A stretch of 32,000 bases of DNA from Geobacter metallireducens GS-15. Lineage in GTDB: Bacteria; Desulfobacterota; Desulfuromonadia; Geobacterales; Geobacteraceae. Below the pieces are notes generated by a model. It saw only the letters and a program-made list of their open reading frames with translations. It did no database searches and was not told the origin of the DNA. The translations under genes were made by a program, and so were the position numbers. This document shows positions 6,640-20,189 of the stretch, piece after piece (the stretch's first letter is position 1; each line of letters starts with the position of its first letter). The stretch covers positions 1,890,001 to 1,922,000 of the forward strand of contig NC_007517.1 in assembly GCF_000012925.1 (NCBI RefSeq), written 5' to 3'.

Positions 6640-6897
6640 ATGGCAGACCAACTGATTGAAGAAGTTAAACAACTCATCATAGACGCCCTCCGGATTGAGG
6701 GTATGACTCCCGCCGAGATCGATACCGATGCGCCGCTCTTTGGCGAGGGGTTGGGACTTGACTCCATTGATGCCCTCCAACTGGTGGTGGCCATGGAGAA
6801 GCAGTACGGCGTCGTTGTTCCCGATGCTGCCACCGGGACCAAGGTCTTTCAGTCGGTCCGTACCGTGGCCGACTTTGTCGCGGAAAACCGTAAATGA
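6640..6897 (+). CDS. Acyl carrier protein
   Basis: 85 aa. Phosphopantetheine attachment motif GLGLDSIDALQLV. Good Shine-Dalgarno (AAAGGATAAGG) upstream. Confidence 0.9.
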   Translation: MADQLIEEVKQLIIDALRIEGMTPAEIDTDAPLFGEGLGLDSIDALQLVVAMEKQYGVVVPDAATGTKVFQSVRTVADFVAENRK

Positions 6898-8180
6898 AGC
6901 TCCTCTTCGTCTCTCCCGGATGGCCGCGGGGGAGGCTCTGGGGGGAGCTGGGCTTCAAGTTTCCTTCCCTTTCCCTTGCCGCGCTGGCGGCCGTCACCCC
7001 CGAATCGTGGGACGTGGCCCTTTGCGACGAGAATATCGAGCCGCTCGATCTGAATTCCGACGCCGATCTCGTGGCAATTACCGCCATGACTCCCCAGGCA
7101 CCCCAGGCCTACCGGATCGCTGCCGCGTTCCGCGCCCGGGGGAAGCGGGTGGTCATGGGGGGCTTCCACGCCAGCAACCTGCCGGAAGAGGCGCTCCAGC
7201 ACGTGGATGCCGTGGTGGTGGGAGAGGGTGAGGTGGTCTGGCCCCAACTCCTGGCCGACCTTGAGCGGGGCGAGCTGCAGCGCATCTACCGGGCCGCAAC
7301 CGCACTCGCCATGGAAGCGATTCCCGTGGCCCGTCGTGAGCTATTCCAGGGGAAGCGGTACCTCTTCACCAATACCCTCCAGACCACCCGGGGCTGTCCC
7401 TTTGATTGTGAATTCTGCTCCGTTACCGCCTTTTACGGCCGTAGGTACCGCAAGCGGCCGGTGGATAACGTTCTGGCCGAGCTGGAACTCCTCCGCCGCC
7501 GGAACTCCTTCGCCTTTTTCGTGGATGACAACCTGGTGGCCGACCGCACCTACGCCCTCTCCCTCTTTGCCGGCATGAAGGGGATGGGGTTCAAGTGGCT
7601 TTCCCACGCCCCCATCGATTTCGCCCACGACCGGGAGTTCCTGCGGGCCGCCGGCGAGGCCGGCTGCGTCGGGATGTTCGTCGGCTTCGAGTCCCTGAAC
7701 CAGGACGCCCTTGCCGCCATGGGGAAGGTGACCAACACGGCCCGTTCCTACCTGGAGGATGCCCAAGCCTTCCGTGACAACGGCATCGGCATTCTCGGCT
7801 CGTTCGTCCTCGGCTGCGACAACGACACTCCCGCCGTCTTCGAGGGGCTCCTCCGCTTCTGCGAGGAGGCGCGGCTAGAGGCGGCGATTTTCCCGATTCT
7901 TACCCCCTATCCCGGCACCGAGGTCCGACGGCGGCTTGAGGCGGAAGGCCGGATCATCTCCAGCGACTGGCAGGACTACGACATGGAGCACGTCACTTTC
8001 CTCCCGCGTGGGATGTCCGTTGACGAGCTTCAGCAGGGGTATGACTGGCTGAACCGTTCCTTTTACTCCTTACCATCCATGTACCGGAGAATCTTCAAGG
8101 CCCACCGCTCGGTCCAGGTATTCGCCCCCATGAATTTCGGATTCCGCAGCGCTATCCGCCGGAAGGGGAGGGTCGCGTGA
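6894..8180 (+). CDS. B12-binding-domain radical SAM enzyme (class B), paralog A
   Basis: N-terminal Rossmann-like B12-binding region ([36 protein letters not shown]). Cluster motif [14 protein letters not shown]. C-terminal [13 protein letters not shown] region like DUF4070-type tails. Clearly paralogous to the ORF at 17479-18783. Confidence 0.85.
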   Translation: [428 protein letters not shown]

Positions 8181-17482: not shown

Positions 17483-18783
17483 AGTCCCGTCCCCGCCTCC
17501 TCTTGGTATATCCCGCCACCCACAAACTCGGGTGGGTGCGGCGGTTCCAGCTTCCCTCCCTCTCCCTGAAACAGGTGGCTGCGGTAACCCCGCCGGAGTG
17601 GGAGGTTGTCATGGCCGACGAGGTCCATGAGGATGTTCCCTTCGGTGAAAAGTTCGACCTGGTGGGGATCACTGCCATGACCCACCAGGCGGTCCGGGCC
17701 TACGAGATTGCCGACCGGTTCCGGGCGCAGGGGGTGCCGGTGGTGCTGGGGGGAATCCATCCCACCGTGCTTCCTGAGGAGGCCCAGGCCCATGCCGATG
17801 CGGTCCTTATCGGGGAGGCCGAACCGGTCTGGGCAAAGCTTCTGGACGATTTTCTGGCGGGACGTCTGGCTCCCCTCTACCGGGCACCGATACCTACCGA
17901 CGATCGCCTCGTGATCCCCTGGTCCCGGCGCGACATCCTGGCCGGCCGGCAGTACCTGACCACCCAGACGGTACAGGCTAGCCGGGGATGTCCCTATGAC
18001 TGTCCCTTCTGCACCGTTACCCCGTACTTCGGCCGCACCTTCCGCTACCGAAATCCCGACGACGTCCTGGCCGAGCTCCGCTCCTTCGAGGGTAAGCTGA
18101 TGGTGTTCGTGGACGACAACATTCTGGGGGACCCGGTCCGGGCCAAGCCGATCCTGGAGGGGATGGCGGGGATGAATCTCCGCTGGGGAGGGCAGGCGAA
18201 CCTCCGCTTTGCCGAAGACCCGGAACTGGTCAAGCTGGTGGCCCGTTCCGGCTGTATCGGGATCTTTGTCGGCATCGAGTCGGTGACCGGTCCCCATGCG
18301 AATCACGCCAAGACCGGAAACGGCTCGTCGCAGATCGACCTGGTAAAGCGGGTCAGGGATGCCGGAATCGTGCTGGAGGCCTCCATGATCTTCGGGTTCG
18401 ACGACCACGACGAGGGAATCTTCGAGCGGACGGTCCGTTTCCTGGAGGAGTGCGCCCCCAGCATCCCCACCTTCAACGTCTTGACCCCTTACCCCGGCAC
18501 GTCGCTTTTCAAACAGTTCGACCGGGAGGGGCGGTTGCTCCACAAGGACTGGAGCCGCTACGACCATGGACAGGTGGTCTTCCGGCCCAAGCAGATGACT
18601 CCGGAGCGGCTCTACCGCGGCTGGCAGGAGGCCCGGTGGGAGGCCTACCGCCTCCCCGCCATCGCCTCGCGGGTGATGAAAGGGAAGGGGAAGCTGGTCA
18701 ACCTGGCCTACAATTTCCTCCGGCGCGGAGGGATCGAACGGCCGGACCGAATCGTCCACATACGCGAGGTTGCTGAACCATGA
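17479..18783 (+). CDS. B12-binding-domain radical SAM enzyme (class B), paralog C (closest to paralog A)
   Basis: [36 protein letters not shown] B12-like domain. Cluster motif [14 protein letters not shown]. Collinear similarity to the 6894-8180 product along the whole length. Confidence 0.85.
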   Translation: [434 protein letters not shown]

Positions 18784-20189
18784 ATATCCTGCTTCTTCGC
18801 CCCCATCCAGGGAGTGATGCCTTTGGCCTCGGCCCCTTCTTCCGGGTCGAGCCGCTGGGTCTTGAATACCTGGGGGCCGCCCTGCTTGCTCGGGGGCACG
18901 CTGTCACCATCGCCGACCTCCGTTTTCGCCCCGGCGCCTCCACCTGGGTCCGCCGCAGCCAGCCGCGGTTAGTGGGGATCACCTGTCTCCATGCCCTGGA
19001 ATATGACCGGATCATTGCCACGGCCCGCGAGGTGCGGCGGGTTTCGCCGGACGCCTTCATCCTTGTCGGCGGCCATGCCGCGGCGGCGTTCCCCGATCCG
19101 CTCAAAGACAATGTCATCGATGCCATCTGCCTGGACGACGGCGAGGAGATCATCACCGCCCTCGCGGAGGCTCTGGAAACGGGACGGCCTCTGACCGACA
19201 TCCCGGCCCTGCTGTTCAGGACAGGGGACGGCTGGGTGGAAACTCCCCCTCTATCCGATCAGACCTGCCTCGACCTGGTCCCGCTCCCGGCGCGGCACCT
19301 CGTGGACCGGCACCGCAACAACTACCACTGTCTCCTCTTTAAGCCGGTCTGGCTCATCGAGACCGCCCGGGGGTGCCCCCACCGCTGCTCCTTCTGCTCC
19401 GTCTGGCAGCTCTATGGCCGGTCGGTGCGCGAGCGGAGCATCGCCACGGTGGTGGAGGACTTCGCCACTGCCGGTGATTCCATCTTCGTGGCCGACGACC
19501 TCTTCTGGTACAACCGGGAACGGAGCATCGAGCTTGCCGAGGCGCTGAAAAAGCGGGGAGTCCACAAGCGCTGGATCCTCGTTCAGACCCGCACCGACCT
19601 CATATGCCGGAGCGCCGACATCATGGCGGCCTGGCGTCCCCTGGCCAAGGACTTCGACATCTTCCTGGGGCTTGAGGCGGCCAGTGACAAGGGCCTTTCC
19701 GGTCTCGACAAGGACGCGGGGCTTGCGGAGAGCATCGAAGGGGTCAGGATCGCCCGGGAACTCAAGTACGGCATCAACGGCAACTTCCTCGTGGGCCACG
19801 ACTGGGGCGAGGAAGAATTCCGCGAACTCTGGGACTTCGTGGCCCAGTACGGCCTGCAGCGGGCCGGCTTCACCATCCATACCCCGCTGCCGGGGACCGA
19901 CCACTACCGCGAGATGAAACCGCGGATCCCCGACCAGCCCTGGTCCAACTTCGACATGCACCATCTCCTCTGGGAGCCGCGCATCGGCGCGAAGCGGTTC
20001 TTCGAGCTTTACGCCGAAACCTGGCGCCGCTCGATCCTCAATACCTCCGGCGAGAAGAGTATCGTCGACTGGATGCGTCAGGTCCGACCGAGCCAGATTC
20101 CGTACATTGCCCGGGTGCTCTGGCGCACCCAGCGGATGATGAAGCCTGCGGCCTATTTGAAGGAGTATGAGGCGACGCGGCCAAGGTAG
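18780..20189 (+). CDS. B12-binding-domain radical SAM enzyme (class B), paralog D
   Basis: N-terminal B12-like domain (LVGITCLHALEYDRIIATAREV...ILVGGHAAA). Cluster motif TARGCPHRCSFCSV. Last gene of the operon. Confidence 0.85.
   Translation: MNILLLRPHPGSDAFGLGPFFRVEPLGLEYLGAALLARGHAVTIADLRFRPGASTWVRRSQPRLVGITCLHALEYDRIIATAREVRRVSPDAFILVGGHAAAAFPDPLKDNVIDAICLDDGEEIITALAEALETGRPLTDIPALLFRTGDGWVETPPLSDQTCLDLVPLPARHLVDRHRNNYHCLLFKPVWLIETARGCPHRCSFCSVWQLYGRSVRERSIATVVEDFATAGDSIFVADDLFWYNRERSIELAEALKKRGVHKRWILVQTRTDLICRSADIMAAWRPLAKDFDIFLGLEAASDKGLSGLDKDAGLAESIEGVRIARELKYGINGNFLVGHDWGEEEFRELWDFVAQYGLQRAGFTIHTPLPGTDHYREMKPRIPDQPWSNFDMHHLLWEPRIGAKRFFELYAETWRRSILNTSGEKSIVDWMRQVRPSQIPYIARVLWRTQRMMKPAAYLKEYEATRPR

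Follow-up and report, generated by a model that had tools for sequence, protein, structure and literature searches.

Why would a single operon with the genes of a fatty-acid-like pathway hold several radical S-adenosylmethionine (SAM) enzymes with a B12 (cobalamin)-binding domain? The question is raised by a stretch of 32,000 nucleotides of Geobacter metallireducens GS-15 (NC_007517.1, positions 1,890,001 to 1,922,000 of the forward strand; hereafter the window), in which positions 2862-20189 of the + strand form a tightly coupled operon containing five radical SAM genes, four of them with a B12-binding domain. These four genes, which we name R1 to R4, had been noted in a preliminary description made from the sequence alone. 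With moderate confidence, we propose that the operon encodes a Geobacteraceae-wide pathway for a specialised exported lipid, the acyl chain of which would be tailored by several distinct cobalamin-type radical SAM steps, probably C-methylations.

The gene map was made from a listing of open reading frames (ORFs) and from Pfam and NCBIfam scans of the proteins of the window, and the cluster was compared with about 160 related loci (given L numbers where they must be told apart). The six radical SAM proteins of the window, five encoded in the operon and one (R5) outside it, are exact matches to GenBank ABB31918, ABB31921, ABB31924, ABB31931, ABB31932 and ABB31936. The four B12-type enzymes of the operon are the following:

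6894-8180, + strand: R1, radical SAM enzyme with a B12-binding domain and, at its C-terminus, DUF4070 (Pfam, alignment and AlphaFold2 model)
9444-10847, + strand: R2, member of family TIGR04072 (396.5 bits; cut-off 360)
17479-18783, + strand: R3, paralogue of R1 with a DUF4070 tail (Pfam and blastp)
18780-20189, + strand: R4, HpnR-like B12-radical SAM enzyme (TIGR04367, 227 bits; cut-off 650)

All four ORFs begin with ATG and end with proper stop codons at the positions first described, and the cluster motifs quoted at that time are exact in R1 to R4 (that of R4 is TARGCPHRCSFCSV). The CxxxCxxC motif is present in these four proteins and in R5, and the cluster cysteines are retained in all four operon enzymes. 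Each of them also scores above the cut-offs of the B12-binding domain PF02310 (R1 50.3, R2 71.6, R3 45.4 and R4 45.4 bits; cut-off 32.1) and of the Radical_SAM domain PF04055 (43-67 bits; cut-off 29.5). The N-terminal Rossmann-like B12-type region that had been described for all four is borne out by the PF02310 matches, by AlphaFold2 models of R1 and R4, which match two-domain B12-type structures over their full length, by the alignment of R2 with TsrM and, for R3, by its 40% identity to R1. The preliminary count of four radical SAM genes is right for the B12-type genes, but the operon total is five, the fifth being the SPASM-type gene at 4364-5746.

The four enzymes had been divided into at least three subfamilies with one paralogous pair, and this division holds. 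In blastp comparisons, the products of 6894-8180 and 17479-18783 align along their full length (39.8% identity over 432 positions, E = 5e-105), and the alignment strings quoted for them are present in the R1 and R3 translations; the other pairs are, as claimed, much more divergent (21.6-30.6% identity, E = 1e-13 to 1e-24). In a neighbour-joining tree built from 78 B12-type radical SAM ORFs of related loci, four groups (the orthologues of R1, those of R3, the family of R2 and that of R4) were separated with bootstrap values of 97-100%, and R1, R3 and R1-like sequences together formed a superclade with 100% support. R1 and R3 are thus separate orthologous groups, and the four enzymes are non-redundant, as had been supposed. 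Their ratios of nonsynonymous to synonymous substitution (dN/dS), calculated against G. hydrogenophilus, are 0.050 for R1, 0.110 for R2, 0.043 for R3 and 0.066 for R4, values equal to or lower than those of the ketosynthase (KS), malonyl-CoA:acyl carrier protein acyltransferase (AT) and MMPL exporter genes of the operon. Strong purifying selection acts on all four B12-type genes.

R2 is a member of the NCBIfam family TIGR04072, 'lipid biosynthesis B12-binding/radical SAM protein' (rSAM_ladder_B12), with a match covering model positions 1-441 of 443, and its RefSeq name is identical to the family name. The genomic context that goes with this family is found here as well, since the operon of R2 encodes an acyl carrier protein (ACP), an AT, a ketoreductase (KR), a KS, a chain-length-factor (CLF)-like partner and a dehydratase (DH). 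The nearest characterised relatives of R2 are BzaD (204 bits on its model) and TsrM (PDB 6wte, E = 2.8e-39), both C-methylases of aromatic carbon. R2 aligns with TsrM over both domains, its N-terminal domain corresponding to TsrM residues 5-162. Arg68 of R2 is aligned to Arg69 of TsrM and is invariant in an alignment of 50 sequences of diverse family members; the position of TsrM Glu273 is occupied by Ile241 in R2, and by Ser/Val in the consensus of the R2 family. We take it that, in TsrM, Arg69 lies beneath the corrin ring and Glu273 is the ligand to the unique cluster iron. If these residue roles are right, R2 would have a TsrM-like cobalamin site without the feature that is tied to the non-radical mechanism of TsrM; because Glu273 is missing, that mechanism cannot be assumed for R2.

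R1 and R3 are ancient paralogues for which there is no curated family. Their highest score on any curated model is 94 bits, they reach only 83-94 bits on the curated methylase models of NCBIfam, and TIGR04072 gives 83 bits for R1, 56 for R3 and 69 for R4, none of which is a member. The AlphaFold2 model of R1 (pLDDT 83) has AprD4 as its best Foldseek match (PDB 6fd2; E = 2e-22, TM score 0.71), followed by MgmA, CysS, TsrM, OxsB and TokK. AprD4 is also the PDB entry that R1 matches best in sequence (phmmer E = 3e-16; 22-23% identity), and in both a Rossmann-like N-terminal domain precedes a radical SAM barrel. Nevertheless, R1 reaches only 67 bits on the AprD4 family model (cut-off 500), and AprD4 acts on an aminoglycoside with a partner reductase, a context that is not present in the operon. 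The chemistry of R1 and R3 may include AprD4-like or ring-forming reactions.

R4 aligns with the HpnR model TIGR04367 over its full length (residues 18-461) and scores 227.4 bits. Its AlphaFold2 model (pLDDT 71, with 80-97 in the N-terminal domain) gave Foldseek matches to MgmA, TsrM, CysS, OxsB and TokK. We rejected the assignment of R4 as a true HpnR, the hopanoid C-3 methylase, on the basis of the score and of the absence of a hopanoid gene context: no hopanoid gene adjoins R4 in the eight contexts examined, which include the window, L084, L086, L087, L088 and L089. Some JGI records call R4 orthologues 'hopanoid C-3 methylase', and many orthologues of R1, R2 and R4 are labelled 'YgiQ (UPF0313 family)'; both labels look like over-annotation.

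The DxHxxG motif is absent from all five B12-type proteins (R1-R5), as expected for His-off cobalamin binders. We rejected the GG motif that these proteins share as an indicator of cobalamin binding, because AprD4, which reportedly lacks the cofactor, carries it too. Only R2 has a specific candidate indicator, namely Arg68 at the TsrM Arg69 position. An Rfam scan of the window did not detect a cobalamin riboswitch upstream of the operon, the sole hit being a c-di-GMP riboswitch. Cobalamin biosynthesis operons are present in G. metallireducens (PMC2700814), which we count as cofactor supply, and we infer that R1 to R4 use this cofactor.

Which pathway do these enzymes serve? The remaining features of the operon and its boundaries are:

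2813-2842, + strand: sigma-70-like promoter match just 5' of the first operon gene (weak; consensus scan only, 9/12 positions)
2862-3704, + strand: polysaccharide deacetylase family protein (PF01522 67 bits, DUF3473 114 bits); the first cluster gene in Geobacteraceae loci
3689-4351, + strand: GT2 glycosyltransferase (PF00535 83 bits), with partial NCBIfam matches to polyprenyl-phosphate sugar transferases (PpgS, AglJ, ArnC-like)
4364-5746, + strand: radical SAM/SPASM enzyme without a B12 domain (PF04055 73 bits, PF13186 36 bits, motif CNLSCYGC)
5743-6636, + strand: LpxL/HtrB-like (lipid A biosynthesis-type) acyltransferase (PF03279 94 bits)
6640-6897, + strand: dedicated ACP (PF00550; NF006617 77.9 bits, cut-off 70), its stop overlapping the R1 start
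8177-9019, + strand: FabD/MdcH-like AT (PF00698; TIGR03131 124 bits and TIGR00128 103 bits, both under cut-off)
9016-9447, + strand: 4HBT (YbgC/FadM-like) thioesterase, TE (PF13279, PF03061)
10916-11668, + strand: FabG-like KR (TIGR01830 268 bits, under the cut-off of 298; FlxB 221 bits)
11665-12870, + strand: FabF-like KS with an intact Cys160/His294/His330 triad
12867-13907, + strand: KS-like CLF-type partner of 346 aa, matching the N-terminal KS domain only
about 13873-14286, + strand: FabZ-like DH, start uncertain (NF000582 69 bits)
14287-14907, + strand: LolA-like periplasmic lipid/lipoprotein carrier (PF03548 68 bits)
14939-17482, + strand: MMPL/RND-type inner-membrane exporter (PF03176 108 bits)
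20226-20246, + strand: terminator-like hairpin and T tract, 37 bases past the R4 stop (consensus scan)

Start and stop codons overlap by 4 bases at the junctions ACP/R1, R1/AT, AT/TE, TE/R2, KR/KS, KS/CLF, MMPL/R3 and R3/R4. These overlaps, together with the promoter-like site and the terminator-like hairpin, are why we regard the genes as a single operon. Downstream of it, the GC content drops from 0.65 to 0.475.

The CLF-type partner lacks both catalytic His residues and has a Phe aligned to the catalytic Cys of the KS. Its ATG start at 12867 agrees with the public gene calls, the ORF listed from 12531 being over-extended. For the DH, whose ORF frame spans 13786-14286 (+ strand), the public start is GTG 13966 (106 aa), by which the conserved LPHRRPFLLLDR motif is cut off; the alternative starts TTG 13873 or CTG 13900, the latter after GGAGG, retain it. 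The Pfam and NCBIfam scans revealed no enoyl reductase encoded in the operon, and no phytoene-desaturase-like (amino oxidase), SAM methyltransferase or CoA ligase gene either. Nor does the operon contain a gene for the supply or activation of an aryl starter. The SPASM enzyme, which shows NirJ/AhbD-like partial matches, is among the best-conserved proteins of the cluster, with an identity of 73-88% in almost every Geobacteraceae locus (56% in L019).

This gene content recalls two known types of system, and the operon is the cluster, ladderane-type and aryl-polyene-like, that was noticed in Geobacter in 2009. Extended type II fatty-acid synthase clusters with radical SAM genes are known from Kuenenia and Desulfotalea, and similar clusters have been stated to exist in Geobacter species and Pelobacter carbinolicus (Rattray et al. 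2009, PMC2649909). These ladderane-type clusters, as in Kuenenia stuttgartiensis and Desulfotalea psychrophila, contain, like the operon, an ACP, a KS with an inactive KS-like partner and a FabZ-like DH, as well as a polysaccharide deacetylase, a glycosyltransferase and radical SAM genes that include the B12 type. Cluster I of anammox bacteria comprises amxACP, amxFabZ, FabF2/FabFmut, PDH and a B12-type radical SAM gene (Dietl 2023; Granatino 2026 preprint), and the operon has functional analogues of its ACP, FabZ, active/inactive FabF pair and B12-type enzyme. In particular, the KS/CLF-like pair resembles the amxFabF2/FabFmut heterodimer (bioRxiv 10.64898/2026.05.19.726425) and aryl polyene (APE) KS/CLF pairs. 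Unlike the ladderane-type clusters, the operon contains no phytoene-desaturase-like gene, SAM methyltransferase or CoA ligase; it does contain LolA/MMPL export genes and an LpxL-like acyltransferase; and its host, unlike the anammox bacteria, is a Geobacter, from which no ladderanes are known.

Two TIGR04072 contexts outside Geobacter, L090 and L091 from two other phyla, including Nitrospirota, are fatty-acid-synthase-like clusters that resemble the Kuenenia clusters of Rattray et al. There is a phytoene-desaturase-like amino oxidase in L090, whereas L091 has a SPASM enzyme beside the TIGR04072 member, several KS genes, methyltransferases and a CoA ligase. Each contains one B12-type enzyme, in contrast to two to four in the Geobacter clusters, and the extra R1, R3 and R4 therefore appear as an elaboration of Geobacteraceae (and Acidobacteria). 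No sequence named as anammox was among the best 120 profile-search matches of the R2 family.

The other likeness is to APE clusters, which share with the operon a KS/CLF pair, ACP, KR, DH, 4HBT thioesterase, LpxL-like acyltransferase, GT2, LolA-like carrier and MMPL exporter, and also have no enoyl reductase. Furthermore, the operon ACP passes the cut-off of NF006617, its KR reaches 221 bits on the flexirubin model FlxB, and DHs of related loci match ApeP/ApeI-like Pfam families. APE clusters differ in encoding aryl-starter functions and, to our knowledge, have no radical SAM genes, of which the operon has five.

For the comparison of the cluster across genomes, 80 genome loci were fetched around R2 homologues and all cluster proteins were mapped onto them. 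The order deacetylase, GT2, SPASM enzyme, LpxL-like acyltransferase, ACP, R1, AT, TE, R2, KR, KS, CLF, DH, LolA, MMPL is found in nearly all Geobacteraceae/Desulfuromonadales loci. About 55 Geobacteraceae genome loci and 15 from metagenomes retain the core order, which runs from the deacetylase gene to R2 and usually goes on with the genes from KR to MMPL. The locus of G. hydrogenophilus (L032) matches the window in gene order, also with respect to R3 and R4, at 89-97% identity. B12-type radical SAM ORFs of the loci comprise 61 of R1, 24 of R3, 13 R1-like, 82 of the R2 family, 7 of the R4 family, 2 of R5, 12 of R6, a family located between the SPASM and LpxL-like genes, and 6 of R7. In the 55 genome loci that measure at least 15 kb, one such ORF was present in 1 locus, two in 25, three in 20 and four in 9; because the counts range from one to four, the window, with its four, stands at the top of a common pattern. 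Four are found in other lineages too, by other combinations, for example R1, R2, R3 and R6. The preliminary description had called several B12-type enzymes in one such pathway unusual. This is so in comparison with characterised pathways (PMC13459092), but not within Geobacteraceae, where 29 of these 55 loci have three or four.

R1 and R2 belong to the constant part of the cluster. The adjacency of ACP and R1 is nearly universal, and a reciprocal metagenome scan around R1 homologues showed that R1 orthologues with at least 69% identity always adjoin R2. More distant R1 homologues (41-56% identity) occur without R2 and keep LpxL-like acyltransferase, AT and LolA or MMPL neighbours. For instance, L141 (7105-11688, checked with Pfam) encodes an LpxL-like, an R1-like and a LolA-like protein, a TPR protein and an AT; the R1 homologues of L141 and the similar loci L121, L124, L125, L130, L133 and L137 (45-51% identity) lie in this minimal module of LpxL-like, R1-like, LolA-like, TPR and FabD-like AT genes, in which no R2, KS or recognisable ACP was found.

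R3, R4 and two further B12-type families are movable accessories, with two to four B12-type enzymes per cluster. R3 follows the MMPL gene in the window, L032, L049 and L055; it lies directly after R1 in L006, L008, L015, L016, L022, L024, L025, L027, L045, L048 and L056, and upstream of the deacetylase gene in L021, L028, L030, L031, L035, L038, L043 and L044. In many other loci no R3 is present within 10 kb of the cluster. That the linkage of R3 is kept in three differing positions argues for selection on linkage. L043, a locus without R1, has a second ACP gene directly 5' of R3 (2566-4093), as though ACP-R3 had taken the place of ACP-R1. When in the cluster, R4 always adjoins R3 (window, L032, L006, L056, L051, L084 and L089). 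In L084, from G. anodireducens, which stands for the G. sulfurreducens group, the R4-R3 pair is divergently transcribed; in Oryzomonas, Trichlorobacter and others, R4 has R3 on one side and AT on the other.

Putting these data together, we propose the following pathway. The dedicated ACP would be loaded by the FabD-like AT and, in 'long' clusters such as that of the window, the chain would be extended by the KS/CLF pair with KR and DH. Since no enoyl reductase is encoded, it may be unsaturated or beta-functionalised. The chain would be tailored by the five radical SAM enzymes and then released or transferred via the thioesterase and the LpxL-like acyltransferase. GT2 and the deacetylase might supply the acceptor, possibly an amino sugar or a polyprenyl-phosphate sugar; by comparison with ArnC/ArnD and with the assembly of lipid A, one may speculate that a deacetylated amino sugar carrier is N-acylated. 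The MMPL exporter and the LolA-like protein would carry the lipid to the outer membrane. R1, R2 and the SPASM enzyme would provide the invariant core chemistry, whereas R3 and R4 (R5/R6 elsewhere) would be lineage-specific tailoring cassettes.

Most likely, the B12-type enzymes each form a C-C bond of their own on the acyl chain. The chain would most probably be C-methylated at distinct positions, by analogy, because R2 and R4 have only C-methylases as characterised relatives and because CysS and TokK/ThnK provide precedents of iterative radical C-methylation on carrier- or pantetheine-linked, thioester-tethered intermediates. These enzymes have the same two-domain fold (in Foldseek, both the R1 and the R4 model match CysS with E of about 1e-14 and TokK with E of 1e-11 to 5e-12). 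They differ in sequence (14-18% identity) and in length, having about 620-680 residues with extra C-terminal domains, and they perform several steps with one enzyme, whereas the operon has several different enzymes. The TsrM/BzaD-like character of R2 would suggest an sp2 carbon as target, and the HpnR-like character of R4 an unactivated sp3 carbon.

Several observations weigh against this proposal. The best structural match of R1 is AprD4, a non-methylating 1,2-diol dehydratase, the Rossmann-like domain of which reportedly holds no cobalamin, and R1, R3 and R4 have no characterised close relative. Holophagales/Thermoanaerobaculia (Acidobacteria) have a bare pair of R1 (67-70%) and R2 (55-58%) without ACP or KS genes (L060-L069, L073 and L078), with unrelated neighbours, which encode a protein kinase, an Fe-alcohol dehydrogenase, an aldehyde:ferredoxin oxidoreductase and a SelD/NifS-like fusion. 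This suggests that R1 and R2 form a portable two-enzyme module, which has probably moved between phyla. 'Short' clusters, in the G. sulfurreducens group and Trichlorobacter (L089), stop after R2: they keep the deacetylase, GT2, SPASM, LpxL-like, ACP, R1, (R3, R4), AT, TE and R2 genes and have no KR, KS, CLF, DH, LolA or MMPL gene. In L084, a MaoC-type dehydratase gene follows R2, and the same proteins are present in G. sulfurreducens PCA (AAR33572-AAR33582). Both the bare pairs and the 'short' clusters imply that the substrate need not come from a synthase encoded in the cluster. In addition, G. argillaceus, Geobacter sp. DSM 9736 and Geomonas sp. Red32 carry a monocistronic R4 in unrelated surroundings. 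In view of the bare pairs, the 'short' clusters and the stand-alone R4, the earlier supposition that all four enzymes act on one ACP-bound substrate is a possibility only. Finally, no product, mutant or assay for these genes was found in the literature searched.

One further B12-type gene lies near the operon, followed on the same strand by a second gene:

23656-25074, - strand: R5, B12-radical SAM gene outside the operon, of a separate family (domain and family scans, tree)
23001-23603, - strand: PagL-like lipid A 3-O-deacylase/outer-membrane beta-barrel protein (PF09411 71 bits), directly 3' of R5

Their arrangement is a hint at a lipid A-related role of R5. In L042, an R5 homologue (74% identity) is located just 3' of the MMPL gene.

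The same pathway might use some or all of its B12-type enzymes, especially R1 and R3, for reactions other than methylation, such as C-C cyclisation or cross-linking, rearrangement, desaturation or dehydration. We consider this unlikely, although the AprD4 match and the low scores of R1/R3 on methylase models would fit it. Proposals of such reactions exist for the radical SAM enzymes that anammox bacteria have in their ladderane clusters, the R2 family is named after ladderane-type clusters, and the published hypotheses assign ring-forming roles to it (PMC10139942, PMC13459092). A reactive unsaturated chain is plausible in the absence of an enoyl reductase gene, and Desulfotalea, with a related cluster, makes polyunsaturated hydrocarbons (PMC2649909). 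However, the characterised enzymes nearest to R2 and R4 (TsrM, BzaD and HpnR) are all C-methylases, no ladderane or cyclised fatty acid has been reported for Geobacter in the literature searched, and the phytoene-desaturase-like gene of anammox clusters is missing from the operon. Most characterised B12-radical SAM enzymes are methyltransferases, which also counts against this alternative.

It is quite unlikely, in our opinion, that R3, R4 and the nearby R5 are mere neighbours acting on other envelope lipids (R4 on hopanoids as a methylase of the HpnR type, R5 on lipid A), leaving two B12-type enzymes for the operon product. Geobacter species are hopanoid makers, HpnR is the best family of R4 with a full-length alignment, some JGI names agree with it, and R4 orthologues are 73-97% identical across Geobacteraceae even far from the cluster; neither R3 nor R4 is within 10 kb of many clusters, and the PagL-like gene follows R5. 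Set against this are the low HpnR score of R4 and the lack of hopanoid genes next to it in the eight contexts, and also the translational coupling of R3 and R4 to the MMPL gene and to each other in the window. Moreover, in Oryzomonas, L056 and Trichlorobacter both genes are enclosed by the cluster, with R1 on one side and AT on the other, and R3, a paralogue of the core enzyme R1, is cluster-linked in three positions and follows an ACP gene in L043. Extremely improbable is a last alternative, in which a single housekeeping enzyme has given rise to all four genes as redundant or decaying copies, so that their number would mean nothing for biosynthesis. The paralogy of R1 and R3 is in its favour, but these two separate with 100% bootstrap support (66-97% identity within each orthologue group across Geobacteraceae, 34-48% between them), they are the most constrained operon genes in a set of four with dN/dS of 0.04-0.11, R2 and R4 belong to other families, and all four keep the cluster cysteines. 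No housekeeping family reached its cut-off, and the four did not collapse into one group in the tree. On the basis of phylogeny and dN/dS, we rejected this explanation.

The chemistry at stake has few precedents. According to a 2026 review, ladderanes and jawsamycin are the only proposed cases of radical SAM tailoring of fatty-acid-type (ketoacyl) lipids (PMC13459092). For the ladderane proteins, Dietl et al. (2023) state that no experiment ties any of them to a product, that there is no genetic system for anammox bacteria and that heterologous production of the radical SAM enzyme was not achieved (PMC10139942). 'Ladderane' clusters have been found in Desulfobacterota and other phyla in metagenomic surveys (PMC9902471), and Desulfotalea made polyunsaturated hydrocarbons, not ladderanes (PMC2649909). 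No literature on the Geobacter operon or its G. sulfurreducens orthologues was found, and the operon is not discussed in the G. metallireducens genome paper. Links to 10-methyl-16:0 and mid-chain hydroxy fatty acids, for which no literature support was found, were dropped as evidence.

The operon places a member of the ladderane-cluster enzyme family TIGR04072, together with three further B12-type enzymes, in a cultivable Geobacter. Genetic tools exist for both G. metallireducens and G. sulfurreducens. A bolder possibility, to which we assign a low probability, is that the R1/R3 family, which goes along with an LpxL-like acyltransferase and, in its close orthologues, with R2, acts on a fatty-acyl chain by a new radical SAM reaction of the cobalamin type, for example C-C cyclisation, cross-linking or remodelling of a primer, and not by simple methylation, and that R3/R4/R5/R6 cassettes diversify an undescribed class of outer-membrane lipids. 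If so, the operon would be the first tractable system for the role of 'ladderane-type' TIGR04072 enzymes, and a new Geobacter envelope lipid class and new radical SAM chemistry are possible outcomes. As the cluster type and the gene annotations were already public, our finding sharpens an open question and does not open a new one.

Some other features of the window flank the operon. On its left, a LysR regulator gene (1764-2663) precedes it, and immediately left of that gene is an IS4-type DDE transposase gene (539-1708, + strand; DUF4372 and DDE_Tnp_1). On its right, the c-di-GMP-I riboswitch (21272-21348, + strand; 43.3 bits, gathering score 35) is directly 5' of a multihaem cytochrome gene (21341-22870), in a stretch with a GC content of 0.475-0.50, compared with about 0.64 in the operon. 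Downstream of R5, a response-regulator diguanylate cyclase gene (25319-26293, + strand) overlaps by 4 bases with 26290-30231, which encodes, as judged from its translation, a putative hybrid sensor kinase of 1313 aa.

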